Positions 21,409-47,363 of a DNA stretch of 64,000 bases are shown here, one piece after another. Origin of the DNA: a virus. The position numbers were made by a program, and so were the translations under genes. Under the pieces are notes generated by a model, which saw only the letters and a list, made by a program, of their open reading frames with translations, was not told the origin of the DNA and did no database searches. The DNA lies in the IMG/VR virus record IMGVR_UViG_3300031857_000025, one strand, 5' to 3'. The number at the start of each line of letters is the position of its first letter. The first letter of the stretch is position 1.

Positions 21409-21975
21409 ATGTTACCACAATTACATATGCCTCCTAGTCAAATAAAAAAAGCTTATACAGCTGGAGGTGAATATATTATTGCCAATGTAAATGATCGTCG
21501 AGAATATGTTGGATATCTACATATATATCCAAACGGTGCTATATATAGTGGTGATAAGTACACATCGGATAGTATAGAATTATTAATGGTGCCGGCACAA
21601 TACTTTAACTCCCAGTATAATGGTATATATTTTAAACTTACTAGAGCAGCTTTTTATAATCATACAGATCCGCAACATTACGTTTTAGTACCTACAGCAG
21701 ATGATCGTAAAAAAGGTGTAGTTAAACGATATTTTGCCTGTAAACGCAATGAAGATATTGTTATTGAAGTTGATTCCAAACAAGTGCAAGCAGCTAATGT
21801 ATCAAATAAAAAAGGTATTAATGCACGTATTTGGCGTATGATATCATTGGAATGGACAATTGCTGGTAATACAGATGAAGTACAACGAGCGAATAGTAGA
21901 GTTGTATCAGTTGCATCACGTAAAGTTCCTTATATACGTACATACTTATCAGACCTTTTAGAATTTTATCAGTAA
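21409..21975 (+). CDS. Hypothetical protein (tail module)
   Basis: 188-aa ORF (YTAGGEY...YVGY.H...RYF) at the end of the baseplate cluster. Confidence 0.6.
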   Translation: MLPQLHMPPSQIKKAYTAGGEYIIANVNDRREYVGYLHIYPNGAIYSGDKYTSDSIELLMVPAQYFNSQYNGIYFKLTRAAFYNHTDPQHYVLVPTADDRKKGVVKRYFACKRNEDIVIEVDSKQVQAANVSNKKGINARIWRMISLEWTIAGNTDEVQRANSRVVSVASRKVPYIRTYLSDLLEFYQ

Positions 21976-31400: not shown

Positions 31401-33257
31401 ATGAACGTATCTAATGAAATACTCTCTGATATTACTGTGCATATGAAGTATGCTAAGTATATTCCAGAGTTACATCGCAGAGAGACCTGGGAAGAGCTAG
31501 TGACCAGAAATAAAAACATGCATCAAAAGAAATATCCAAATTTAAGCAATGAAATTGAAGAAGTATATAAGTACGTTTATGATAAAAAGATTTTACCGTC
31601 CATGCGTAGTTTGCAATTTGGTGGTAAGCCAATTGAAATATCACCTAATCGTATATATAATTGTGCTTATCTTCCTATTGATGACTGGAGGGCTTTCGGT
31701 GAAGTAATGTTCCTATTGTTAGGCGGTACGGGTGTAGGGTATTCAGTACAACGTCACCATACTGAGCAATTACCAGAGATACGTAAACCGAATATGGATA
31801 GAGAACGTCGATTCCTTATTGCTGATAGTATCGAAGGTTGGGCAGATGCTGTTAAGGCATTAATGAAATCATATTACCAAGGTGGTTCAAAAATTAAATT
31901 TGATTTTTCTGATATCCGTGCAAAAGGAGCCCGTTTGGTTACGTCAGGCGGTAAAGCACCAGGACCACAACCACTTAAAGAATGTTTAATTAAAATTCAA
32001 GGTATTTTAGATTCAAAAGAAGATGGAGAAAAATTATCACCTATTGAAGTGCACGATGTGGTATGTCACATTGCAGACGCTGTTTTGGCTGGGGGTATAC
32101 GTCGCGCAGCTCTCATATCATTGTTTAGTGCAGATGATGATGAGATGATTGCTTGTAAGTCTGGAGCTTGGTGGGAACTTAATCCACAAAGAGGACGTGC
32201 TAATAATTCGGCAGTATTGATACGCCATAAAGTTACTAAAGAGTTCTTTATGGATCTTTGGAAGCGTGTTGAATTGAGTGGTGCTGGAGAGCCTGGTATT
32301 TATTTATCCAATGATAAAGATTGGGGAACTAATCCATGTTGTGAAATTGCACTTCGTCCTTATCAGTTCTGTAACTTATGTGAAGTAAATGTATCAGATA
32401 TTGAATCTCAAGAAGATTTGAATAACAGAGTTAAGGCAGCTGCGTTTATTGGAACACTTCAAGCAGGTTATACAGACTTCCATTATCTTCGTCCGGTATG
32501 GAGACGTACTACTGAAAAGGATGCATTGATTGGAGTATCAATGACTGGTATTGGATCTGGTACAGTGTTAGGATATAATATGAAAGAAGCTGCTAAGGCA
32601 GTTAAAGAAGAAAATGCTCGTGTAGCATCAATCTTAGGTATTAATTCCGCTGCAAGATCAACTACCGTTAAACCGGCCGGTACTACATCATTAACATTAG
32701 GTACTAGCTCTGGTATTCATGCATGGCATAATGATTATTATATTCGTCGAATTAGAGTAGGTAAGAATGAAGCTATTTATTCATATCTATCAATTTATCA
32801 TCCAGAGTTAATTGAAGATGAATACTTCCGTCCTCATGACACTGCAGTTATTTCAATACCACAGAAAGCACCGGATGGGGCTATCTTAAGAACAGAATCG
32901 CCATTCCAATTATTAGATCGTATTAAACGTATTACTACAGAATGGGTAAGACCTGGACATCGTACTGGTAACAATACTCATAATGTATCAGCGACAGTTT
33001 CATTACGTGAACATGAATGGGACGCGGCCGGTCAATGGATGTGGGATAATCGTGATTACTATAATGGTTTGTCAGTACTTCCTTATGATGGCGGTACATA
33101 TAAACAAGCACCATTCGAAGATATTACAGAGGAACAATTCCATTCTATGATGAAGTCACTTCATAATATTGATTTGTCGAAGGTAATTGAATTAGATGAC
33201 AATACAGATTTGTCGGGTGAGTTAGCATGTGCCGGTGGAGCTTGTGAGATAAAGTAA
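31401..33257 (+). CDS. nrdJ: Class II (adenosylcobalamin-dependent) ribonucleotide reductase
   Basis: NCAY, GGTGVGYSV, GGIRRAALISL, TNPCCEI...FCNLCEVN, TTVKPAGT and C-terminal CAGGAC. No small-subunit gene adjacent. Confidence 0.9.
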   Translation: MNVSNEILSDITVHMKYAKYIPELHRRETWEELVTRNKNMHQKKYPNLSNEIEEVYKYVYDKKILPSMRSLQFGGKPIEISPNRIYNCAYLPIDDWRAFGEVMFLLLGGTGVGYSVQRHHTEQLPEIRKPNMDRERRFLIADSIEGWADAVKALMKSYYQGGSKIKFDFSDIRAKGARLVTSGGKAPGPQPLKECLIKIQGILDSKEDGEKLSPIEVHDVVCHIADAVLAGGIRRAALISLFSADDDEMIACKSGAWWELNPQRGRANNSAVLIRHKVTKEFFMDLWKRVELSGAGEPGIYLSNDKDWGTNPCCEIALRPYQFCNLCEVNVSDIESQEDLNNRVKAAAFIGTLQAGYTDFHYLRPVWRRTTEKDALIGVSMTGIGSGTVLGYNMKEAAKAVKEENARVASILGINSAARSTTVKPAGTTSLTLGTSSGIHAWHNDYYIRRIRVGKNEAIYSYLSIYHPELIEDEYFRPHDTAVISIPQKAPDGAILRTESPFQLLDRIKRITTEWVRPGHRTGNNTHNVSATVSLREHEWDAAGQWMWDNRDYYNGLSVLPYDGGTYKQAPFEDITEEQFHSMMKSLHNIDLSKVIELDDNTDLSGELACAGGACEIK

Positions 33258-33427
33258 TGAGACCTGATGATTGGATAAGTCAACTCCATATGGAAGAGAC
33301 AATGCAAGATTATTACAAGGAAAATGGGCGTGTAGTTTTTACCGCCCACTTTCTGCGTAAACGGGGATATTGTTGCAGTAACGGATGTCGTCATTGCCCA
33401 TATACTGATATTTATAATAAAGGATAA
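33257..33427 (+). CDS. Small Cys-rich protein (DUF5522-like), not in the ORF track
   Basis: 56 aa: MRPDDWISQLHMEETMQDYYKENGRVVFTAHFLRKRGYCCSNGCRHCPYTDIYNKG. TAATG-coupled to nrdJ. Confidence 0.75.
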   Translation: MRPDDWISQLHMEETMQDYYKENGRVVFTAHFLRKRGYCCSNGCRHCPYTDIYNKG

Positions 33428-33428
33428 C

Positions 33429-33857
33429 ATGATTAAATTAACAACTTTAATTCGTGAAAATGAAGCAGCAAAATGTCCTATTGCTACCCAAGATATCAAT
33501 GTAAACTTACAAAACAGACAAAAGGGTATCAATGAATATGGTTACGGTCCGTTGAACCCAAATGAACCAAATGAATCATTTTGGGCTGATAAGCAAGAGA
33601 AATGGAAACTAGATTCGCCAGAAGATGCTAAAAAATCATTATGTGGTAATTGTGCTGCATTTGATATTACTAGTAAAACATTGAATTGTATTGCTATTGG
33701 TATCGGTGACGATCAAGGAACTGAAGATCCTCATGATGTTATTGAAGCTGGCGAGTTAGGATATTGTAGATTCTTAAAATTCAAATGTGCTGCTAAACGT
33801 ACCTGTGATGCATGGGTAGTCGGTGGACCAATTACTGATGATAAACAAGCTAAATGA
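33429..33857 (+). CDS. Cys-rich protein with MIKLTTLIRE leader (possibly metal or Fe-S binding)
   Basis: CGNCAAF...GYC...KC...TCDAW; preceded by ATATTTATA (33408) and AAGGA. Confidence 0.6.
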   Translation: MIKLTTLIRENEAAKCPIATQDINVNLQNRQKGINEYGYGPLNPNEPNESFWADKQEKWKLDSPEDAKKSLCGNCAAFDITSKTLNCIAIGIGDDQGTEDPHDVIEAGELGYCRFLKFKCAAKRTCDAWVVGGPITDDKQAK

Positions 33858-34311
33858 GTGGATGGCATTTATACAAATGCCTAGAACAGAACTTGGTGGG
33901 TTTGCTATATGTCCATATGCAAGACAAGCTATCATACAAAAGTCATATGATATACAGTATACAAATGTAAATAGTGTTACTAGTATATTAGATGATATTG
34001 ATATCACTAAAAATGATGTTACTATACTTGTAATAGATGATTATATGAACTATGATATGGAGTATTTAGTTAATCATACTATGGAATTAAATCAAAAATA
34101 TAAAATGCAGGATATTGTTATACTTGATAATGACCCTAGATCACCTATGGATATTAATGGTGTAGTATCAACATTTGAACATGCATATCTTTGGATTATA
34201 CAATCACTCAGTGATCTAACAAGTAAAAGTCGACAATTAAGTAAAACAAATTATTATAGCTTTTGGACTCAACAGCAAATTGATGAAGTTGTTACATGGA
34301 GAAAAAAATAG
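33838..34311 (+). CDS. Hypothetical protein (DUF1415-like CPYA motif)
   Basis: EW..F...P..ELGGFAICPYAR...Q.LS.L...S..L.K..YY..W; ATG 33838 is in frame with the track ORF. Confidence 0.55.
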   Translation: MINKLNEWMAFIQMPRTELGGFAICPYARQAIIQKSYDIQYTNVNSVTSILDDIDITKNDVTILVIDDYMNYDMEYLVNHTMELNQKYKMQDIVILDNDPRSPMDINGVVSTFEHAYLWIIQSLSDLTSKSRQLSKTNYYSFWTQQQIDEVVTWRKK

Positions 34312-34320
34312 AAAATAAAT

Positions 34321-34352
34321 TTGGAATAATAAAAGAAAGTATTTATATTTAG
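34321..34352 (+). promoter_or_regulatory. Early/middle promoter of the que/polB operon
   Basis: TTGGAA-N17-TATATTTAG. Confidence 0.6.
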
Positions 34353-34373
34353 ATAAATTAAAAATAATAAGTT

Positions 34374-34661
34374 ATGTTTAAATTCAAAGATGTAGAAGTA
34401 ACCTTCGATATGAAGCAGTTACCGTTTTATGATCAAGAGTATCTTAAAACAATGTGTTATGAAACAGTGAATGCAAAGTCTTATATGCATTCCGGAAAGA
34501 GTTTTAATGAATTGTATAAGAGTGCTAACAACTTTACTATCTTCAGTGATGACAGTACTATGCATAGCTATATGTCAGAATTTGCAGGTAAAGTTGCTAA
34601 TACAGCTTCGCATTTGTTACATGGTAAAAAATACTATTTCGCTTGGACTTATAAAAAATAA
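34374..34661 (+). CDS. Hypothetical protein, first gene of the que operon
   Basis: 95 aa, downstream of the promoter TTGGAA-N17-TATATT (34321-34349). Confidence 0.6.
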   Translation: MFKFKDVEVTFDMKQLPFYDQEYLKTMCYETVNAKSYMHSGKSFNELYKSANNFTIFSDDSTMHSYMSEFAGKVANTASHLLHGKKYYFAWTYKK

Positions 34662-34663
34662 AG

Positions 34664-35149
34664 GTGTATATGACAAGATATGTCTCAACAAAGCTATTCG
34701 AAAACTACTCTGTCGCTATTCGTCAATGGAAAGCACAACATTCTCATTGCCAACTATTACATGGTTATGCTTTGAAGTTCAAAGTATGGTTTGCTAGTAA
34801 TGAGCCAGATATTGATAACCAATTAGATGATATGAATTGGATTGTTGATTATGGTGGATTTAAAACTCCGCCTCAGGGTAATGGACTAAAAGATTGGATG
34901 AATCATATGTGGGATCATACAACATTAATTCAAAAGGATGATCCTTACCGTGATTTGTTTGAATCTATGCAAATGGAAGGTATATGTAAAGTGCACTTCC
35001 TAGATAAAATGGGAGCGGAGAGTTGTGCTCGTTTAGTATATGAACATTTCAATAAGGTATTATCTAATACTGATGCTGGTAGATGTAAATGTATTAAAGT
35101 AGAATGTTTTGAAAATGATAGTAACAGTTCAATTTACGAAGAAATATGA
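34664..35149 (+). CDS. queD: 6-carboxy-5,6,7,8-tetrahydropterin synthase
   Basis: HCQLLHGY, IVDYG, WDHTTL, GAES.AR and C-terminal FEND.NS (T-fold); adjacent to queE. Confidence 0.88.
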   Translation: MYMTRYVSTKLFENYSVAIRQWKAQHSHCQLLHGYALKFKVWFASNEPDIDNQLDDMNWIVDYGGFKTPPQGNGLKDWMNHMWDHTTLIQKDDPYRDLFESMQMEGICKVHFLDKMGAESCARLVYEHFNKVLSNTDAGRCKCIKVECFENDSNSSIYEEI

Positions 35150-35928
35150 AACCAGGTAGAATAACAGATTATAATAAACAGTTACCAATAGTAGAATTAT
35201 ATTATTGTGTACAGTCAGAGGGTAGCCGTTCTGGTATGCCAACCGTATGTGTACGTACTACCGGATGTACTCATAGATGCTGGTTCGGAGAAGGCGGATG
35301 GTGTGATTCATGGTATACTAGTATTCATCCAGAGAAAGGAGGATTTAGTTTTAATGATATCAAAAAGATGTATGATGATCGTCCAGATATCAAAGAAATG
35401 ATGTTAACAGGTGGTTCACCTACTATGCATCCTGATCTAGTAAATGAATTAACTCATTTTGCTAATGAACGTGGTATTTTAATTACAATGGAAACGGAAG
35501 GTAGTCATTTCATTGAAACAGATTATCCAATTGGATTGATTTCATTGTCACCTAAGTTTAGTAATAGCGTACCTAAGGTCGGCGTTGCAACTCCTAAAGG
35601 AGCTACTACTGATCAGCGTATGATAGATCAACATAATAAGTTTCGTCTTAAGTATGATGTGATGAAACAGATGATTGCTTATCATTCTGATTATCATTTC
35701 AAGCCAGTATGTAATCCTACGGAAATGCCTGAGGTATGGGAAGAAATAGAAAAAGCTAGAGAAACATTAGGAATTCCAAAAAATAAAACTTATATTATGC
35801 CTCCAGGTGATAATAGAGATGAACTTATCAGAGTATATCCAATGGTAATGGACTTCTGTAGAGATAATGGATTTAATTTTACAGGTCGAGAGCATATCAT
35901 TGCTTTTGATACTAAACGATGTGTATAA
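35146..35928 (+). CDS. queE: 7-carboxy-7-deazaguanine synthase (radical SAM)
   Basis: ELYYCVQSEG, VRTTGCTHRC-x7-CDS, LTGGSP, METEG, SLSPK, REH. Confidence 0.9.
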   Translation: MKPGRITDYNKQLPIVELYYCVQSEGSRSGMPTVCVRTTGCTHRCWFGEGGWCDSWYTSIHPEKGGFSFNDIKKMYDDRPDIKEMMLTGGSPTMHPDLVNELTHFANERGILITMETEGSHFIETDYPIGLISLSPKFSNSVPKVGVATPKGATTDQRMIDQHNKFRLKYDVMKQMIAYHSDYHFKPVCNPTEMPEVWEEIEKARETLGIPKNKTYIMPPGDNRDELIRVYPMVMDFCRDNGFNFTGREHIIAFDTKRCV

Positions 35929-35942
35929 AAAGGAGAATAGTT

Positions 35943-36239
35943 ATGAACATGAAACCAATGGGCGACCAGGTGTTGCTGAAAGAAAGAGAAAAGAAAGAAA
36001 AAACGACTTCAGGTATTATTCTTATGAATGGAGCTGAAGGTTACTATGTAACGGCAGATGTTATTGCAGTAGGTGATGGTTTGTTTACTCAAACCGGAGA
36101 TCGTATTCCAATGACAGTCAAGCCAGGTGACATTGTTATGATACATAAGAATGACACTACAGATAATAAAAAAGTAAAAATTGATGATCAGGAGTATGTA
36201 CTAGTACGTGAATCTGATATCGCAATGTATCAACAATAA
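35943..36239 (+). CDS. groES: Co-chaperonin GroES
   Basis: MKPMGDQVL...TTSGII...VIAVGDG...VKPGD.V...YVLVRESDI; SD AGGAG before ATG 35943. Confidence 0.9.
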   Translation: MNMKPMGDQVLLKEREKKEKTTSGIILMNGAEGYYVTADVIAVGDGLFTQTGDRIPMTVKPGDIVMIHKNDTTDNKKVKIDDQEYVLVRESDIAMYQQ

Positions 36240-36240
36240 T

Positions 36241-36960
36241 ATGGCAGAAAAGAAACAATTAGGTAACTCGTTAGAAACTGTACAATCAGGATTTGCTAAC
36301 GGTGTATCAAGTCATTTGGCAAAGAAACAAGCTCTCGAAGGTCCAAATGCTAAACTATCACAAGACGAAAAGCAACAAATTATCGATGAAGCTGCATATT
36401 ACTTTGCAAAGTTTTTATCGGCATTAGGTGTTGATTGGGAGAATGATCCTAATTCAAATGATACACCTCGACGTGTTGCAAAGGCATATGTAAATGATTT
36501 ATGGGCAGGTCGATTCAATTCGGCTCCGGAGATTACAGCATTTCCTAGTGACGGATATGATGGTATAGTATTTGAGGGGGGTATTCCATTGACTTCAATG
36601 TGTTCGCATCATCATCAGACTATTATGGGTAGAATCCATGTAGCATATATTCCAGGTGAGAATGGTAAGGTTGTAGGTTTAAGTAAACTTAATCGTATTG
36701 TTGAGCATTTTGGAAGACGTGGTGCAATACAAGAACAGTTAACAGTTGCCATTCATAATGCAGTTAATACTATTATTGAAGACAATAAAGGTGTAGCTGT
36801 TATGGTAGAGGCTACTCATAACTGTGTACAATGTCGTGGTGTTAAACATGGCGGAGCTAGTATGAAGACATCTAAACTAACTGGTGCATTCAAAGAAGAT
36901 CCAGCTACAAGAAATGAGTTTTATGAATTTATAAGAGGTTATGGAAATACTAATTCCTGA
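36241..36960 (+). CDS. folE: GTP cyclohydrolase I
   Basis: DTPRRVAK, SMCSHHH, VAYIP, VGLSKLNR, IQEQLT, HNCVQCRGV. Confidence 0.93.
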   Translation: MAEKKQLGNSLETVQSGFANGVSSHLAKKQALEGPNAKLSQDEKQQIIDEAAYYFAKFLSALGVDWENDPNSNDTPRRVAKAYVNDLWAGRFNSAPEITAFPSDGYDGIVFEGGIPLTSMCSHHHQTIMGRIHVAYIPGENGKVVGLSKLNRIVEHFGRRGAIQEQLTVAIHNAVNTIIEDNKGVAVMVEATHNCVQCRGVKHGGASMKTSKLTGAFKEDPATRNEFYEFIRGYGNTNS

Positions 36961-37444
36961 ATATAAAATTGAGCGTAGAGTAAGAGCTCTAGCTCATAAG
37001 ATTACAGAAGATCATAGGAACAGTGGTAATTCATTGCCACCTGTACTAGTCTGTGTATTAAACGGTGCGTTCATGTTCTTTTCTGATTTAGTTAAGGACA
37101 TGGGTACGGATTGTGAAATCGATTTTATTAGACCTAAGTCATACCATGGCCAAGATAATTCCGGTGGTGTTAAATTTTATAAGGAATTAGAATTGGATCT
37201 TAAAGGTAAGCGGGTTTATATTATTGAGGATATTGTCGATACTGGTTCTACTATGTTAGAGATTTTACAAAAGGTAGATGATCGCCGACCCGCCGAAATA
37301 CGAGTTGTTACATTGGTACATCGTAAAGGAAGTAAGCATCATGTTGACTTTAATGCCTTTGAAATTGAAGATGAGTGGGTAGTTGGATATGGACTCGATG
37401 ATAACGGATTAAAAAGAAACTATAGAAACATTTATAAGAAATAA
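36941..37444 (+). CDS. hpt: Hypoxanthine/guanine phosphoribosyltransferase
   Basis: VCVLNGAFMFFSDL, KSY, PRPP-binding motif VYIIEDIVDTGST, WVVGYGLD, RN. Confidence 0.9.
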   Translation: MEILIPEYKIERRVRALAHKITEDHRNSGNSLPPVLVCVLNGAFMFFSDLVKDMGTDCEIDFIRPKSYHGQDNSGGVKFYKELELDLKGKRVYIIEDIVDTGSTMLEILQKVDDRRPAEIRVVTLVHRKGSKHHVDFNAFEIEDEWVVGYGLDDNGLKRNYRNIYKK

Positions 37445-39915
37445 TGTACCAAGCAGTAGCATATCAACAAAGGACTAATACTGTCCATATTTGGGATGAC
37501 CAGAAAGGTCATTTGCAGATCAAGTATAAACCATATGCATATCGTAAATCAAGTTACGGTAAGTATGTAGCATTAGATGGTAATACTGTCGATAAAGTAT
37601 TTCAGTTTGACAAAGAAGAAGAAGGACTATACGAGGCAGATATTAATCCGGAGACAAGAACATTAATTGATATGTATACAGATTCAGATGATTTATCTAT
37701 AGGTCATAGTACCATGTTTATAGATATTGAGGTTGATATTGAAAACGGATTTCCTACTCCAGAAGAAGCTCAGAATGAAGTAACATCAATTGCAATTTAT
37801 GACCAGGCCGGCGATAATCGAAAGGTATGGGTGCTAGATAAGGCAGGAGTAGTGACATCCACCAACTTAATTACATCATGTCGTACAGAGTATGAATTGT
37901 TACAACAGTTCTTATTAAGTTACTATGAGATCAAGCCAACTATTATTACTGGATGGAATATTGATTTCTTTGATATTCCGTATTTGTATAATCGTATGTG
38001 TAAGATATTAGGTGAGAATATTGCCCGTACATTATCTCCTATTAAAGATGTCATATGGCTGAAACATCGTAACAGATATCGAATCTCCGGAGTTAGTTGT
38101 TTAGATTACTTAGCATTATATAAAAACTTTACTTATTCAGAAGAGTCTAGTTATTCTTTAGAAGCTATATCTCAAAAAGAATTAGGCAGAGGTAAGCTTA
38201 AGTATGATGGTAACCTTAATGATTTAATGCGTACGGATATCAATAAGTATGTAGAGTATAACTTAAATGACGTTGAGCTGGTACTTGAGATTGATAACAA
38301 GATGAAATTGTTAGACTTGGCTCGAGGTATTTGTCATAAAGGGCATGTACCATATGAGGATGTATATTTCTCTACTAGATACTTAGATGGCGCATCATTA
38401 ACTTATCTTAAACGCTTAGATATTGTCGCTCCAAGTAAAAGACCTAGAGAAGAAGGACAAGGTGTTGATCTGTTAGGAGCATACGTTAAGGTACCTGTAC
38501 CGGGGCGTTATAAATGGATATACGACCTTGACTTAACCTCGCTATATCCTAGTATCATTATGACACTTAACATTTCACCTGAAACGAAATTGTTTAAGTT
38601 AGATAAATTTGATGGTAAGGAATATGTAAAGAATACTGGTACTCATTATTCATATCGTGATACTGGTTGGGCTACAAGTGAAGAATTACGTAATCATCTA
38701 GAGACGAACAAGTATTCAATTGCAGCTAATGGAGTTGTATATAAGACAGATGAAAAAGGATTCATACCATCTATTCTTGAGAAGTGGTTTAAAGAACGTG
38801 TTGATTATAAGAATCTTAAGAAGAAGTATGAAAAGGAAGGAGATAAAGCCAAGGCAGAATACTTTGATAGATTACAGTTAGTGACGAAGATCTTGCTTAA
38901 CTCATTCTATGGAGCGTTAGGTAATGCCGGATTCCGATTCTTTGATCCTGATAATGCAGTGGCTGTAACAAGTACGGGTCAGCAGTTAATTAAGTTTACG
39001 GCTGATATTGGTAATATGTTTTATAAGAAAGAGTTAGGAGTTGAAAAAGATTATTGTATTTATACAGATACAGATTCAACTTTCTTTTCATCATTACCTA
39101 TCATACAGAAACGATATCCAGATGGTAATATAACAGATGAACAATGGATGGCAGAAAAGACTATTGAAGTAGCTAATGAAGTACAAGCATTTATCAATAA
39201 GTCATATGATATGTACGCCAGTAAGTTCCATAATGTTAATACTCATAGATTTGATATTAAGCAAGAGTTTGTAGCCAAGGCAGGTATTTGGATTGCCAAG
39301 AAACGATATGCCCAATGGCTAATCAATCAGGAAGGTCATACTATATCTCGTTTGGATGTTAAAGGTATGGACGTTGTTAGATCAAGTTTCCCAGTAGCGT
39401 TCCGTAAGTTCATGTCTGAGGTATTGAAAGATATCTTAAATGATATTGATAAGACTGCATTGGATACCAAGATCTTAAATTTCAAAGATAACCTAAAGAC
39501 ATTACCGATATTAGATATCATGGCACCTACTGGTGTTAAAGAGATAAGCAAGTATACTACTAAGCATGCTAAGCCATTTGCAATGCGACCAAAAGGTACT
39601 CCGGTCCATGTTAAATCAGCATTAAACTATAATGATCTTCTTAAGCATCATAGTATTACAAATATTCGTGAGATCATGGACGGTGAAAAGATTAAATGGT
39701 GTTACATAAAAACAAATCCATTGAACTTGGATTCATGTGCATTGAAAGGATATGATGATCCAGAACCTATATGGAATTTTGTAGAACAGTATATAGACCA
39801 TGATAAAATCTTTAAGTCAGCATTTCAAAATAAACTAAATGACTTCTATCAGGCACTTAATTGGGGTAGTGTTCCTGAGAATAACAATATGGCAAAATTC
39901 TTTAGTTTTTCTTAG
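37444..39915 (+). CDS. Family-B DNA polymerase (T4 gp43-like)
   Basis: Exonuclease motifs DIE, TGWNIDFFD and YNLNDV; polymerase motifs DLTSLYPS, KILLNSFYG, YTDTDS and KKRY. Confidence 0.95.
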   Translation: MYQAVAYQQRTNTVHIWDDQKGHLQIKYKPYAYRKSSYGKYVALDGNTVDKVFQFDKEEEGLYEADINPETRTLIDMYTDSDDLSIGHSTMFIDIEVDIENGFPTPEEAQNEVTSIAIYDQAGDNRKVWVLDKAGVVTSTNLITSCRTEYELLQQFLLSYYEIKPTIITGWNIDFFDIPYLYNRMCKILGENIARTLSPIKDVIWLKHRNRYRISGVSCLDYLALYKNFTYSEESSYSLEAISQKELGRGKLKYDGNLNDLMRTDINKYVEYNLNDVELVLEIDNKMKLLDLARGICHKGHVPYEDVYFSTRYLDGASLTYLKRLDIVAPSKRPREEGQGVDLLGAYVKVPVPGRYKWIYDLDLTSLYPSIIMTLNISPETKLFKLDKFDGKEYVKNTGTHYSYRDTGWATSEELRNHLETNKYSIAANGVVYKTDEKGFIPSILEKWFKERVDYKNLKKKYEKEGDKAKAEYFDRLQLVTKILLNSFYGALGNAGFRFFDPDNAVAVTSTGQQLIKFTADIGNMFYKKELGVEKDYCIYTDTDSTFFSSLPIIQKRYPDGNITDEQWMAEKTIEVANEVQAFINKSYDMYASKFHNVNTHRFDIKQEFVAKAGIWIAKKRYAQWLINQEGHTISRLDVKGMDVVRSSFPVAFRKFMSEVLKDILNDIDKTALDTKILNFKDNLKTLPILDIMAPTGVKEISKYTTKHAKPFAMRPKGTPVHVKSALNYNDLLKHHSITNIREIMDGEKIKWCYIKTNPLNLDSCALKGYDDPEPIWNFVEQYIDHDKIFKSAFQNKLNDFYQALNWGSVPENNNMAKFFSFS

Positions 39916-39944
39916 GTTTTTTAAGAGTTTGTATTTATATTTAG
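39913..39944 (+). promoter_or_regulatory. Early/middle promoter of the ORF-GT-dpdA-clamp operon
   Basis: TAGGTT-N17-TATATTTAG. Confidence 0.5.
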
Positions 39945-39966
39945 TCAAATTAAAAAATAATAAGTT

Positions 39967-40383
39967 ATGTACGGTGAGCAGTATTGGTATGGTAAAGAGG
40001 TCGAAGGTCGATACTCTGATGTTGAAACAGTTTTTGTAAGAAGTGGTATTCCTACGGATATTTTAGAGTATCCTCATGCATACTTTACAATTGAGTATGT
40101 GCGAGAAATGATTAAAAAGAATGATTGGTCAATTGTACATATGATTCTTAAGACTCGTCAAATTGTAACGGTCGAAGCTACTGCTGATACATTAGATCAT
40201 ATTCCAATGTCAGTATTTAATAGAGCACATATTATCTATCGTATTCCTGATAGTCATTTGGCTAAACTAAAGAAAACTGATACATTGTCAATTGATGCTG
40301 GTTGGTACCGAGTTCATCAGATTATGAAATGCAACTTAATGGAAATCAATCCAGATGATTATAAATTCGATAGATTAAAGTAA
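39967..40383 (+). CDS. Hypothetical protein coupled to the GT-DpdA genes
   Basis: 138 aa (YWYGKEVEGR...TVFV...Y.FD); TAATG overlap with the next gene. Confidence 0.65.
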   Translation: MYGEQYWYGKEVEGRYSDVETVFVRSGIPTDILEYPHAYFTIEYVREMIKKNDWSIVHMILKTRQIVTVEATADTLDHIPMSVFNRAHIIYRIPDSHLAKLKKTDTLSIDAGWYRVHQIMKCNLMEINPDDYKFDRLK

Positions 40384-41573
40384 TGAAAAGAAATATATTT
40401 TATTTTGGCCTAGAGCCATTAAAAGCTAGATATACTTATCAGCTATGCGAAGAATGGATGCCTAAAACTTTTGAGGCATACAAAGATCGTTTAAACTTTA
40501 TTCCGATGCCAGGAGAGTTCGATCCCGATCAAGAAATCAAAGTAGGTGCCGTGTTAGATGCAATTGGTAGAGGCAAGTATAGTTTGACTCAATGTCAAAA
40601 CTTCTTGAAAATGATCTATGATGGTACGGTTAAAGACGGTGACGTTATTTTCTTGCAAGACTATTGGACTCCAGGTTTAGATGCTATTTGGTATGCTTTG
40701 GATTTATATAATATCAAAGTTAAGGTATATGCAATGTTACATGCTCAATCAGTTGATGAATATGACTTTACATATCCGATGGCATATTGGATGCGTCATT
40801 ATGAGTTAGGATTGGATCAACGCATGACCAGTATCTTTGTAGGAAGTACTATCCATAAAGAACAATTGAGAGCGGCTGGGTTCAAAGCTCCTATACATGT
40901 TGTATCGTTACCGATTCATAAACAAGCTACATTAGATGTATTACCTGAATGGAATACATTGGATAAGAAAAATGTAATTGTATACTCAAGTCGATTTGAT
41001 AAGGAAAAGAATCCATTCTTCATGATGGAAGTAGCTGAACAGTTCTTGAAAAAGAATCCGCGATATGAATGGCACGTAACTACATCCGGCAAAGAGTTCC
41101 GTAGTATGTTACCAGGTGTTATCGATGCTATGAATGCATTAGCAAAACGTCAGCCTAGATTTAAAATGTTGAAAGGTTTAACTAAGCAAGAATATTATAC
41201 AGAGTTAGCTACATGTAAGGTACAGTTTAATACATCATTACAAGATTATGTATCATGGACTGTTATCGAGTCAACTGCATTTGGAGCTGATATCGTGTTT
41301 CCTAATTTCAGATCATTCCCAGAGTTTATTGATGCATCTCGATTGTATAAACCGTTTGATGTTCAAGATGCGTTAACGGTATTAAATAATGTACTAGGTA
41401 ATACTAAAACTCATTATGATATTGTTGATCGTTCTGACTTGGGTAGACAAATGGAAGGATATATCATTGCCAATGATTTTGATAAGGAGATATGTATTTG
41501 GCATGAAACAGAATATTGTAAAGCACTTATCAATAGTGAAGTAAAAAATAATCAATTGGAGTTAGAACTATAA
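40383..41573 (+). CDS. GT-B (GT4-like) glycosyltransferase
   Basis: SSRFDKEKNP...LTKQEYY.EL...FNTSLQD...IES.AFG...P.FRSFPE donor-binding half; TAATG-coupled on both sides. Confidence 0.75.
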   Translation: MKRNIFYFGLEPLKARYTYQLCEEWMPKTFEAYKDRLNFIPMPGEFDPDQEIKVGAVLDAIGRGKYSLTQCQNFLKMIYDGTVKDGDVIFLQDYWTPGLDAIWYALDLYNIKVKVYAMLHAQSVDEYDFTYPMAYWMRHYELGLDQRMTSIFVGSTIHKEQLRAAGFKAPIHVVSLPIHKQATLDVLPEWNTLDKKNVIVYSSRFDKEKNPFFMMEVAEQFLKKNPRYEWHVTTSGKEFRSMLPGVIDAMNALAKRQPRFKMLKGLTKQEYYTELATCKVQFNTSLQDYVSWTVIESTAFGADIVFPNFRSFPEFIDASRLYKPFDVQDALTVLNNVLGNTKTHYDIVDRSDLGRQMEGYIIANDFDKEICIWHETEYCKALINSEVKNNQLELEL

Positions 41574-42760
41574 TGAAAAATCTAATATACTACCCGTCAT
41601 TATCAGCAGGAGGCTGTGCTGGCGACTTTAAAAATAACAAAGAAGTAAAGCCAGGATTAACTAGCCGCTTCTATTCAAAGGAGTTTCCGGAACCATGGAG
41701 ACATCCTTATTTTCTAATTACAGCTGGTCACCATTATAAATGGATGGATGCTCGTCAAAGATATGGTTTAGAAGAAGATGTAAAGGTATTGGGCGATTCG
41801 GGTGGTTTCCAGTTAGCGACTGGTGCTATCAAATGGGATCCGAAGTTCAAAGAAACTATCTTTCAATGGTTAGAGCAAAATTGTGATATCGGAGTTAATC
41901 TTGATATTCCGCCTCGCGTGAAGTATGATGGTAAGTTCTATGAGTGTTTAGATATTAGCTATGATAACTTTAAATACTTTGCTGAGAACCAAACGGGTAA
42001 GTGTAAGTTCTTAAATGTTGTACAAGGTAACAATGTTAATGAATATGATATCTGGTATAACCGTGTCAAGGACTTTGATTTCAATGGTTGGTCGATCGGA
42101 GGTACACAGAAAGGTATAGCGTTGTTTATGGCCGCTTTGGTACCAATGTTAAGACATAAAGAATTTGAAAAAGAACGTAATATGTATGTACACGTATTAG
42201 GTATTTCAAAGATATCAGATTTCTTTATGTTGAGCTTCTTTCAAAAGATGCTAAATAAGTATCATGGAGGTCGTATACAAGTATCAACTGACTCTAGTTC
42301 ACCGGGTCAATATCCTGTATATGGTACATACTTGCATTCACCACAGTTAACTAAAATGACATTCACTCATTTGTATTTTCCTAAAGGTGATAATCTTCCT
42401 TATAATCCAACTGACCTAGTACCTAATCCATATGGTCATCCAGTAAGTGAAGGATTTACTTTTGGCGAGGTAGCTAACTATAAAGGTGATGTTACAATGA
42501 AGATGACCTTGAATAACTTGTTTGTATATAATGAAACGGTTAAGCAGGTAGAACAAATTGTACATTGTCATAACGAATTACTACAAACGGTTGTACCTAC
42601 GGATTTATATAATATATTAATGAGTATGGAAGAAATGTTTCAGAACCCAGACCAGGCTTTACATATCTATGAAAAGAATATTCAATTGTATAGTAAGTAT
42701 GGTGGAACAACTAATGACATGGTAAATAATAACGTAATAACTCAATTCTTCGAGATATAA
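41573..42760 (+). CDS. dpdA: DpdA / TGT-family guanine transglycosylase
   Basis: LGDSGGFQ, NLDIPP, NVVQG, GWSIGG, HVLG and STDSSS TGT-barrel motifs; in the folE/queD/queE neighbourhood. Confidence 0.82.
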   Translation: MKNLIYYPSLSAGGCAGDFKNNKEVKPGLTSRFYSKEFPEPWRHPYFLITAGHHYKWMDARQRYGLEEDVKVLGDSGGFQLATGAIKWDPKFKETIFQWLEQNCDIGVNLDIPPRVKYDGKFYECLDISYDNFKYFAENQTGKCKFLNVVQGNNVNEYDIWYNRVKDFDFNGWSIGGTQKGIALFMAALVPMLRHKEFEKERNMYVHVLGISKISDFFMLSFFQKMLNKYHGGRIQVSTDSSSPGQYPVYGTYLHSPQLTKMTFTHLYFPKGDNLPYNPTDLVPNPYGHPVSEGFTFGEVANYKGDVTMKMTLNNLFVYNETVKQVEQIVHCHNELLQTVVPTDLYNILMSMEEMFQNPDQALHIYEKNIQLYSKYGGTTNDMVNNNVITQFFEI

Positions 42761-42761
42761 T

Positions 42762-43481
42762 ATGAAAAAGACAGAACTATTAAATTACATCAGCCGTTAT
42801 CACCTAGCCGGCGCAACTACTTCAGTTAAGTGGAATGCAAGTGGTGGATCATTACAAAGTAGTTTTATTACTGATGACCAGAACGTAATTGGTTCTGTAT
42901 CAGCTAATATTGACTTAGGTAATCAGACATTAGGCGTTTATGCAACACCTCAATTGGTAAAAATGTTATCTGCAGTAGGAGATGATGTTGAGATTGATGT
43001 CAAGGATATTGACGGCAAAGCTGTTAGTATGGATATTTCAGATAAAGAAGTTAACATGACATTTATGTTAGCAGACTTATCAGTTATTCGTCAGGTACCT
43101 GAATTAAAGCAATTGCCAGATTGGAATGTTATGGTACCATTGGACAAGGAATTTGTAAGTAGATTTATCAAGGCAAAGAATGCATTACCTGAGTCTGAAA
43201 ACTTTGGTGTTAATTGCAAGAACGGTAAAACTGAGTTTATTGTAAATTATTCTTCTATTAATACTAGTCGTATTAAATTTGAAGTTACATGCCAAGCAGA
43301 TACTTGTAAGAATATGGATACGGTATGTTTTTCTAGTAACCTATTCAAAGAAATTCTCCAGGCAAATAAAGATGCAGAGACTGCAAAACTAGAAGTATCT
43401 CAGGCAGGTTTAGCTCGTGTAACATTTGCATCTCAAAACTATACATCAACTTATTATTTGGTTCAATTACAAACTGCATAA
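42762..43481 (+). CDS. Sliding clamp (gp45 / PCNA-like)
   Basis: 239 aa, a size consistent with a two-domain clamp; C-terminal L.VS.AGLARVTF....Y.STYYLV; lies between PolB and the clamp loader. Confidence 0.7.
   Translation: MKKTELLNYISRYHLAGATTSVKWNASGGSLQSSFITDDQNVIGSVSANIDLGNQTLGVYATPQLVKMLSAVGDDVEIDVKDIDGKAVSMDISDKEVNMTFMLADLSVIRQVPELKQLPDWNVMVPLDKEFVSRFIKAKNALPESENFGVNCKNGKTEFIVNYSSINTSRIKFEVTCQADTCKNMDTVCFSSNLFKEILQANKDAETAKLEVSQAGLARVTFASQNYTSTYYLVQLQTA

Positions 43482-44099: not shown

Positions 44100-44122
<23 letters not shown>
43922..44122 (+). CDS. Small hypothetical protein
   Basis: MAKKKIVEP..., 66 aa, fills the gap between dut and the clamp loader. Confidence 0.5.
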
Positions 44123-46665
<2,543 letters not shown>

Positions 46666-46677
46666 TTAAAGAAAATT

Positions 46678-46905
46678 ATGGCAAAGAAAAATATCAATGA
46701 AACAGTAGGACAAAAGCGCATCAGCGCAGAAGACCTTCCAAATATTGTATGTGAAAATTGTGGTGGTAGATTTTTTAGACAGGTGCATGCTTTTAAGCGT
46801 GTGCCTGCTATTTTATCTCAATCTAGCAAAGAAGAAATTGTTCCAATTCCAACTTTTCGTTGTGACGACTGTGGTCATATCAATGAAGAATTTATGCCTA
46901 TATGA
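46678..46905 (+). CDS. Zinc-ribbon protein
   Basis: CENCG...CDDCGH. Confidence 0.65.
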   Translation: MAKKNINETVGQKRISAEDLPNIVCENCGGRFFRQVHAFKRVPAILSQSSKEEIVPIPTFRCDDCGHINEEFMPI

Positions 46906-47363
46906 GTGATAAACCTGTAACAAAAGCAGCTACTATATTTGATCATTTATCTAATATTACGGATAAGAAAAAGGACTGGAGTTCTCTATCAGAAGCAGAT
47001 CGTAAGTCCTTTAGTCCTTATCTAATTAATAGATGGCTATCAATGGATCCGGATCTTATTGAGATAGTAAATGAGTTTCAACATTATACAATAGGTGTTT
47101 TAGATACTAAACATGTATACCAGTTATATCATGATCTGTTACCTAAACGTAAATTCTTTACAAAGTATATTAAAGGTAAGTCAGAGGATAAGTATAATAA
47201 GGATCTGATTGAGTTTATTGCTGATCATTATGCTGTATCTAAGCGAGAAGCTACAGAATATATTAGTATGATGATAGATTTGGATTCTACAGAGTTAGTC
47301 GGTATATTAAGCAAGTACGGTAAAACGGAAAAAGAAATTAAGAACTTATTAAAAACAAAATAA
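46902..47363 (+). CDS. Clamp loader small subunit (T4 gp62-like)
   Basis: IFD.L..I...K...FSPYLINRWLS...NE.Q...Y...LPKRK.F.KYIK...A.HY.VS.REA.EY. Confidence 0.7.
   Translation: MSDKPVTKAATIFDHLSNITDKKKDWSSLSEADRKSFSPYLINRWLSMDPDLIEIVNEFQHYTIGVLDTKHVYQLYHDLLPKRKFFTKYIKGKSEDKYNKDLIEFIADHYAVSKREATEYISMMIDLDSTELVGILSKYGKTEKEIKNLLKTK

Follow-up and report, generated by a model that had tools for sequence, protein, structure and literature searches.

A polymerase-like C-terminal peptide on a DpdA-like DNA transglycosylase of T4-like phages suggests docking on the sliding clamp

The DNA analysed here, a stretch of 64,000 nucleotides from IMG/VR record IMGVR_UViG_3300031857_000025 (hereafter the window), belongs to the genome of an uncultured T4-like phage, with a GC content of 34% and all of its genes on the plus strand. 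It carries genes for a T4/RB69-type family B DNA polymerase (PolB), for a divergent member of the tRNA-guanine transglycosylase (TGT) superfamily that resembles the DNA transglycosylase DpdA, and for a predicted sliding clamp subunit. A single nucleotide separates dpdA, whose stop codon ends at 42760, from the clamp gene, whose ATG lies at 42762. PolB and the DpdA-like protein end in much the same short peptide. Here we present the case that the transglycosylase tail is probably a clamp-docking peptide copied from the polymerase, in the manner of T4 DNA ligase. Feature coordinates are collected in Table 1.

The polymerase assignment is straightforward, with Pfam matches to DNA_pol_B and its exo1 domain and a match to phrog_262 at E 1.9e-191. 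With phmmer, PolB aligns to RB69 gp43 at 1.8e-76, and the alignment stops 19 residues short of the C-terminal end, which puts the F-F tail in the same place as the gp45-binding tail of the RB69 and T4 polymerases. The 239-residue product of the open reading frame (ORF) following dpdA had no Pfam match and was identified mainly from its predicted structure. The AlphaFold2 (AF2) monomer model, with a predicted local distance difference test score (pLDDT) of 94.4 and a predicted template modelling score of 0.90, shows a two-domain processivity fold. Foldseek matched it at probability 1.0, with template modelling scores of ~0.7, to human PCNA, T4 gp45 (6drt, 1czd) and 3u61; the T4 gp45 structures matched include gp45 with a bound ligase peptide. 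The sequence also matches the NCBIfam archaeal sliding clamp family (E 1.5e-5), and genes for a cognate AAA+ clamp loader, gp44-like and gp62-like, lie in the same region. On this modelling evidence, we assign the product as a gp45/PCNA-type sliding clamp.

The AF2 model of the DpdA-like protein (pLDDT 91.3) is a TGT (beta/alpha)8-barrel, matched by Foldseek at probability 1.0 and E ~5e-10 to ArcTGT (1j2b/1iq8) and the Zymomonas mobilis TGT. The motifs G-D-S-G-G-F-Q (D75) and T-D-S-S-S-P (D240) are invariant among 46 aligned sequences, and we take D75 and D240 to be the TGT catalytic residues. The window protein (P0004) has no Pfam match, and 21 of 46 relatives match the Pfam TGT family PF01702 at E<=0.01. 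Against the NCBIfam DpdA family NF041059 it scores 16.9 bits, far under the cut-off of 200 bits, and for this reason we call it DpdA-like: it is a divergent subfamily, neither a bDpdA member nor an equivalog. Relatives at ~50% identity carry C-x3-C-P-x-C at the TGT zinc position (columns ~310-330 of alignment A1). At the corresponding residues, ~285-295, cysteines are missing from the window protein and from its close clade, and the zinc site therefore seems to have been lost in this clade.

The substrate is predicted from gene context. The dpdA gene is syntenic with FolE-QueD-QueE genes, which lie 5' of it (33257-36960), and the enzyme would thus be expected to act on DNA, inserting a 7-deazaguanine base. 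No QueC turned up in the cluster of the window, nor in three complete relatives (G001-G003), and the pathway seems to stop at 7-carboxy-7-deazaguanine (CDG). Since a glycosyltransferase gene is translationally coupled to dpdA, the base inserted may be CDG or some other derivative.

The PolB reading frame ends in N-N-N-M-A-K-F-F-S-F-S, with N-N-N-M-A-K-F-F encoded at 39880-39903, and the DpdA-like reading frame ends in N-N-N-V-I-T-Q-F-F-E-I, with N-N-V-I-T-Q-F-F encoded at 42728-42751. Aligned on F-F, both tails fit N-x-x-h-x-x-F-F, where h is a hydrophobic residue. The first-pass annotation of this DNA had pointed to this likeness and to the 1-nt spacing between dpdA and the clamp gene, and translation bore out its tail letters and coordinates exactly. 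In relatives, the PolB tail is conserved as E-N-N-N-h-x-K-F-F-[SA]-F. The PolB of phi-ST2, a cultured Schizotequatrovirus, ends in L-E-S-F-F-G. The end of T4 gp43 is S-L-D-F-L-F-G (PMC6212786).

The annotation went on to propose that the modification enzymes ride the phage clamp, a proposal that depends on the motif being kept among DpdA homologues. It is kept: [FY]F is present within the final 12 residues of 113 of 117 full-length homologues (47-99% identity), and 112 of the 117 have h-x-x-[FY]-F, which in the window protein reads I-T-Q-F-F. In the 46-sequence alignment the column entropies of F392 and F393 are 0.41 and 0.45 bits, against 2.5-3 bits for the surrounding tail and 2.6-2.9 bits for the linker at residues 379-385. 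A low-entropy F-F within a variable tail is the pattern typical of short linear motifs. The AF2 model agrees with this picture: the fold ends at residue 377, in a helix followed by a G-G hinge, and residues 379-392 have pLDDT <50, so the tail is not built into the fold. Across the motif itself (residues 386-392) the model has a short helix. One sub-lineage (L052, L053, P0114 and P0117) has GroEL between dpdA and the clamp gene. In L052, P0114 and P0117 F-F-D-F is kept and then followed by a 20-residue Lys-rich extension, making the motif internal; L053 has no F-F within the 20 residues inspected.

The tail is also specific to the two enzymes. In a comparison set of 80 related viral loci, the motif stands at the C-terminus of 56 of 72 DpdA and 35 of 51 PolB proteins and of 11 of 1255 other ORFs, several of these 11 being spurious ORFs, so that it is enriched more than 50-fold. 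Among the 213 ORFs of a complete relative of 159.6 kb with terminal repeats, only PolB and DpdA end in K-F-F-x-F. The 20,962 residues encoded in the window contain 18 instances of h-x-x-F-F. The significance of the shared tail comes from its conservation and from its co-variation with the polymerase tail, not from counts within the window.

For co-variation, the close clade is of limited use: there, the similarity of DpdA and PolB tails from the same genome is weakly above that of shuffled pairs (p 0.02), and the co-variation becomes convincing only once lineages with L-F in place of F-F are included. When 1.84 billion cluster representatives were searched with a profile, 1206 family members (clustered at 50% identity) were recovered. 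Among 128 full-length top representatives, 55 have an [FY]F end and 36 an [LIM]-F end. Two of the L-F lineages were picked on the DpdA tail, before the PolB ends on their contigs were examined. In one (L145), PolB ends in I-D-T-L-F-D-F and DpdA in I-T-D-L-F-E-F; in the other (L146), the ends are K-T-L-F-N-F and K-S-L-F-N-F, with an identical L-F-N-F. Overall, the type of core dipeptide agrees in all 29 distinct PolB tails that could be paired with a DpdA: F-F goes with F-F in 23, with one Y-F and one H-F in addition, and L-F goes with L-F in 4/4. A permutation test over the 29 PolB tails, uncorrected for phylogeny, gave z 3.8 and p 3e-4, or p 0.009 with the core columns removed.

Two cultured jumbo phages have tails of the L-F type. 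In Pseudomonas phage PA5oct, the C-terminal part of PolB ends in F-D-S-L-F-G-W, and a homologous TGT-like protein (hhalign probability 99.8) bears F-N-S-L-F-D on its tail. The next gene after the PolB C-terminal part, EST35_0314 (L089:1235-1981), gives a full-length alignment to the clamp profile (hhalign E 4e-4) and, given this and its position, is probably the PA5oct sliding clamp. EST35_0314 is annotated as a structural protein and lies between the PolB C-terminal part and the TGT-like gene. In Sinorhizobium phage Phosso, PolB ends in F-N-D-L-F-T-F and a gp45-like gene follows it, and the TGT-like protein ends in E-G-L-F. A further contig, L142, has an L-F-type DpdA beside a clamp and loader, but its polymerase is of the DnaE type with a different end, which points to the clamp, and not PolB, as the partner of the tail.

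The outgroups differ. Distant TGT-like proteins, from Vibrio phage GR7B, Pseudomonas phage Peetri and Xanthomonas phage PhiXhv-12, are longer (456-568 aa) and carry long, strongly Lys/Arg-rich tails, which may be an alternative, clamp-independent way of staying on DNA. No T4-type PolB was detected in GR7B or Peetri (PhiXhv-12 was not searched for it), and none of the three phages yielded a clamp, although an empty search is not the same as absence. The DNA of the T4-like Vibrio phage phi-ST2 is known to carry dCDG, the deoxynucleoside of CDG; its DpdA-like protein, a weak match at E 0.004, ends in A-E-F-P-A-F-K-E-Q-E. In the record of phage CP220, no DpdA3 gene was picked up by the family profile A3 or by Pfam TGT; the CP220 PolB ends in E-T-L-E-E-W.

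Taken with its conservation, disorder and specificity, its co-variation with the PolB tail and its absence in the outgroups, the DpdA tail is best read as a clamp-docking peptide of the polymerase type, and we hold this to be probable. What the first-pass annotation had proposed for DpdA thus stands as far as these comparative properties go, with binding to the clamp itself kept as a prediction. The partner of the tail would be the clamp, and docking would raise the rate or density of modification. In such a scheme, the flexible DpdA tail would present a docking motif, a hydrophobic residue followed by two variable residues and F-F, that copies the peptide by which the T4-type polymerase of the phage would bind its gp45-like clamp. 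The gp44/62-like loader would place clamps on phage DNA during replication, and the transglycosylase would dock where the polymerase tail would, in the hydrophobic pocket of a clamp subunit. Once docked, it would be held on the new duplex DNA, sliding or scanning in one dimension, and clamps left on new DNA could concentrate an otherwise distributive base-exchange enzyme on replicating phage DNA. There it would exchange guanine for the 7-deazaguanine base made by the products of the adjacent FolE-QueD-QueE genes. The annotation had also proposed that host DNA would be spared, a point that would be of little consequence where the host DNA is broken down, as it is in T4.

The bDpdA enzyme requires the DpdB ATPase, whose role a clamp tether could take over. 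A wider proposition is that, throughout a large family of uncultured and jumbo phages, the transglycosylase is a true clamp client, modification is co-replicative and processive, and the tether replaces the ATPase partner; to our minds this is an evenly balanced question.

Several observations weigh against clamp docking. No obvious aromatic end is present in 33 of the 128 diverse representatives, about a quarter, and the four L-F lineages may trace back to as few as two or three independent changes. The DpdA-like protein of phi-ST2 has no clear copy of its own PolB tail, which means that the tether is not universal for the DpdA enzymes of T4-like phages. A GC content of 34% favours codons for Asn, Lys, Phe and Ile. 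Finally, the canonical Gln of the PCNA-interacting protein (PIP) box is absent: both window tails have Asn at this position, which is variable among relatives (2.6 bits). T4-type clamp-binding tails likewise have no Gln at position 1 (PMC6212786).

Of the alternatives, the one that survives best is that the F-F tail serves DpdA itself, in oligomerisation, in autoinhibition, as a base-flipping wedge or in docking the glycosyltransferase, and that its likeness to PolB is convergent. Distant members retain the motif with no PolB or clamp within 10 kb (L061-L064, L073), and phi-ST2 demonstrates that the DpdA of a T4-like phage can do without a PolB-like tail. However, the model (pLDDT <50 in this part) shows no packing of the tail against the fold, and an internal role predicts neither the joint switch from F-F to L-F in PolB and DpdA, with shared flanking residues, nor the basic tails in outgroup phages where no clamp was detected. 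We therefore think it unlikely. A second alternative is that both tails dock on some other shared replisome partner, such as the loader, the gp32-like single-stranded DNA-binding protein (SSB) or the helicase. The comparative data give a common partner for the two tails but not which one, and gp32, UvsX, gp41 and the loader are all encoded close by. Nevertheless, the homologous polymerase tail of T4 and RB69 binds gp45, all of its known copies, in gp33, gp55 and ligase, belong to gp45 clients (PMC6212786, PMC9690074), and dpdA adjoins the clamp gene in most loci, making another partner quite unlikely. A chance or compositional likeness in an AT-rich genome is very improbable, because, although one extra C-terminal h-x-x-F-F among ~70 window proteins would not be significant alone, chance is contradicted by the conservation in 113 of 117 homologues, the more than 50-fold enrichment and the co-variation with PolB.

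Docking of DpdA on the clamp would have close precedents in T4. T4 DNA ligase was found to be a gp45 client through a flexible internal loop resembling the gp43 tail, with binding established by isothermal titration calorimetry and a crystal structure in which the peptide is helical on gp45 (PMC6212786). The same gp43-type motif serves gp33 and gp55 in binding gp45 (PMC6212786, PMC9690074). As in these T4/RB69 clients, the feature seen here is a short hydrophobic and aromatic peptide on a flexible segment, a copy of the polymerase tail on an unrelated DNA enzyme, and as in T4 the clamp is of the gp45/PCNA fold and the loader of the gp44/62 type. What sets it apart from the T4 clients is the predicted client, a transglycosylase that exchanges bases and belongs to a class with no known clamp binder. 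The motifs also differ, being h-x-x-F-F(-x-F) here and x-x-L-F-x-F in the sister lineages, as against L-D-F-L-F in T4, and clamp binding is here predicted from sequence.

Among eukaryotic enzymes acting on DNA bases, UNG2 is tethered to PCNA. The same applies to DNMT1, responsible for maintenance methylation, and to the glycosylase MUTYH (PMC9690074). Like these three, the DpdA-like enzyme would be a base enzyme brought to newly replicated DNA by a PIP-type peptide. Its fold and chemistry are unrelated to those of the eukaryotic enzymes, however, and its peptide has no PIP Gln. The purpose would differ as well, being bulk viral hypermodification against restriction in place of epigenetic maintenance or repair.

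The window enzyme shares with bDpdA and DpdA1-4 the TGT fold, the D-S-G-G-F-Q motif and the link to FolE, QueD and QueE, and it lacks an accompanying QueC, as do phages said to stop at CDG (PMC10516641). It is unlike known DpdA in falling so far below the family cut-off (16.9 vs 200 bits), in having no Cys cluster and in showing no detectable profile similarity to CP220, the DpdA3 host. A full-text literature search returned no paper linking DpdA to a sliding clamp or replisome, and the survey of phage DpdA does not connect any of these enzymes with a clamp or a polymerase (PMC10516641). That 2023 survey describes insertion as post-replicative, with an efficiency that ranges across subfamilies from <0.1% to 100% of G and is left unexplained (PMC10516641); in CP220, with DpdA3, 100% of G is replaced. 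A clamp tether offers a concrete mechanism for how a phage DpdA finds its own DNA and modifies it densely and fast, and one that, if true, would explain the very high G replacement in some phages. The novelty would lie in a new class of client for a known type of clamp-binding peptide, with docking itself being probable. With docking of this kind, a base-exchange enzyme would for the first time join the clients of sliding clamps, giving DNMT1 on PCNA a viral counterpart. The tail motif would then amount to a portable address tag, able to recruit any DNA-modifying enzyme to the phage fork, and the sequence rule of a tail that copies the polymerase tail could be used to find other replisome-tethered DNA-modification enzymes of phages.

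In the window, genes for a gp32-like SSB, UvsX/RecA, RNase H, a gp41-like helicase and a class II ribonucleotide reductase lie 5' of PolB, followed by QueD (34664), QueE (35146), GroES, FolE (36208), a phosphoribosyltransferase (PRT) resembling hypoxanthine phosphoribosyltransferase (HPRT; 36941) and PolB itself. After PolB come a 138-aa ORF, the GT-B glycosyltransferase, the TGT-like gene and the 239-aa clamp ORF, with dUTPase, the gp44-like clamp loader, GroEL and the gp62-like loader subunit on the 3' side. The order FolE-QueD-QueE-PRT-PolB-orf138-GT-DpdA-clamp-dUTPase-gp44-gp62 is largely retained across the 80 related loci; 62 of them include a clamp gene, and in most of these dpdA is its immediate 5' neighbour.

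Table 1. Positions of the features discussed, in the window unless a contig is named
Feature	Position	Strand	Basis
T4/RB69-type family B DNA polymerase (PolB), 823 aa	37444..39915	+	Pfam, PHROG, phmmer
PolB C-terminal tail N-N-N-M-A-K-F-F-S-F-S, presumed clamp-binding peptide	39880..39912	+	Translation, relatives
GT-B glycosyltransferase	40383..41573	+	Weak Glycos_transf_1 match
Divergent TGT-superfamily, DpdA-like DNA transglycosylase, 395 aa	41573..42760	+	AF2 fold, Foldseek, motifs, synteny
DpdA linker, variable, disordered, residues 379-385	42707..42727	+	pLDDT, column entropy
DpdA C-terminal motif N-N-V-I-T-Q-F-F-E-I, presumed clamp-docking peptide	42728..42757	+	Conservation, co-variation
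gp45/PCNA-type sliding clamp subunit, 239 aa	42762..43481	+	AF2, Foldseek, NCBIfam
Clamp loader large subunit, gp44-like AAA+	44100..45029	+	phrog_168 E 7e-83; Pfam AAA and DNA_pol3_delta2
Clamp loader small subunit, gp62-like	46902..47363	+	Pfam Phage_clamp_A E 6e-6
TGT-like protein, Vibrio phage GR7B	L086:3617-5233		
TGT-like protein, Pseudomonas phage Peetri	L087:3872-5242		
TGT-like protein, Xanthomonas phage PhiXhv-12	L090:2093-3799		

The glycosyltransferase had been suggested as a further clamp client, on the basis of its end, Q-L-E-L-E-L, and the likeness of this to QLxLF. The gene is indeed closely tied to dpdA, its stop codon overlapping the dpdA start as TAATG, an arrangement for translational coupling. 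However, Q-L-E-L-E-L, or the variants Q-L-E-L-F and Q-M-E-L-F, is shared by the window and two close relatives alone, and the ends of the remaining orthologues are different. The codons TTG GAG in this part of the gene supply a GGAG 12 nt 5' of the dpdA ATG. QLxLF is moreover a motif of the bacterial beta-clamp and not of the gp45/PCNA type. Because it is unconserved and overlies the GGAG ahead of dpdA, we rejected the glycosyltransferase tail as a clamp motif.

RNase H, gp32, UvsX and the loader subunits, also considered as possible clamp clients encoded in the window, were set aside, having no matching tail or no annotation. A 188-aa ORF (21409-21975) ends in L-S-D-L-L-E-F-Y-Q, loosely like the L-D-F-L tails of the T4 type, and has no family match; it is near T4 gp55 in size, a similarity in size alone that lends no support to gp55 identity. 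In one complete relative (G002), a 160-aa endonuclease of the resolvase-like family phrog_945 (L127:9979-10461, minus strand) ends in P-K-R-F-F-S and is a possible additional clamp client, reminiscent of the archaeal Hjc that binds PCNA.

Two further genes of the cluster deserve mention. The 138-aa ORF between PolB and the glycosyltransferase (39967-40383) keeps its position in most related loci at 30-70% identity; it has no match in Pfam, PHROG or NCBIfam and is a candidate extra member of the modification module. The HPRT-like phosphoribosyltransferase gene (36941-37444) sits between FolE and PolB, with the same placement in many related loci, and its product may salvage the guanine released in base exchange.

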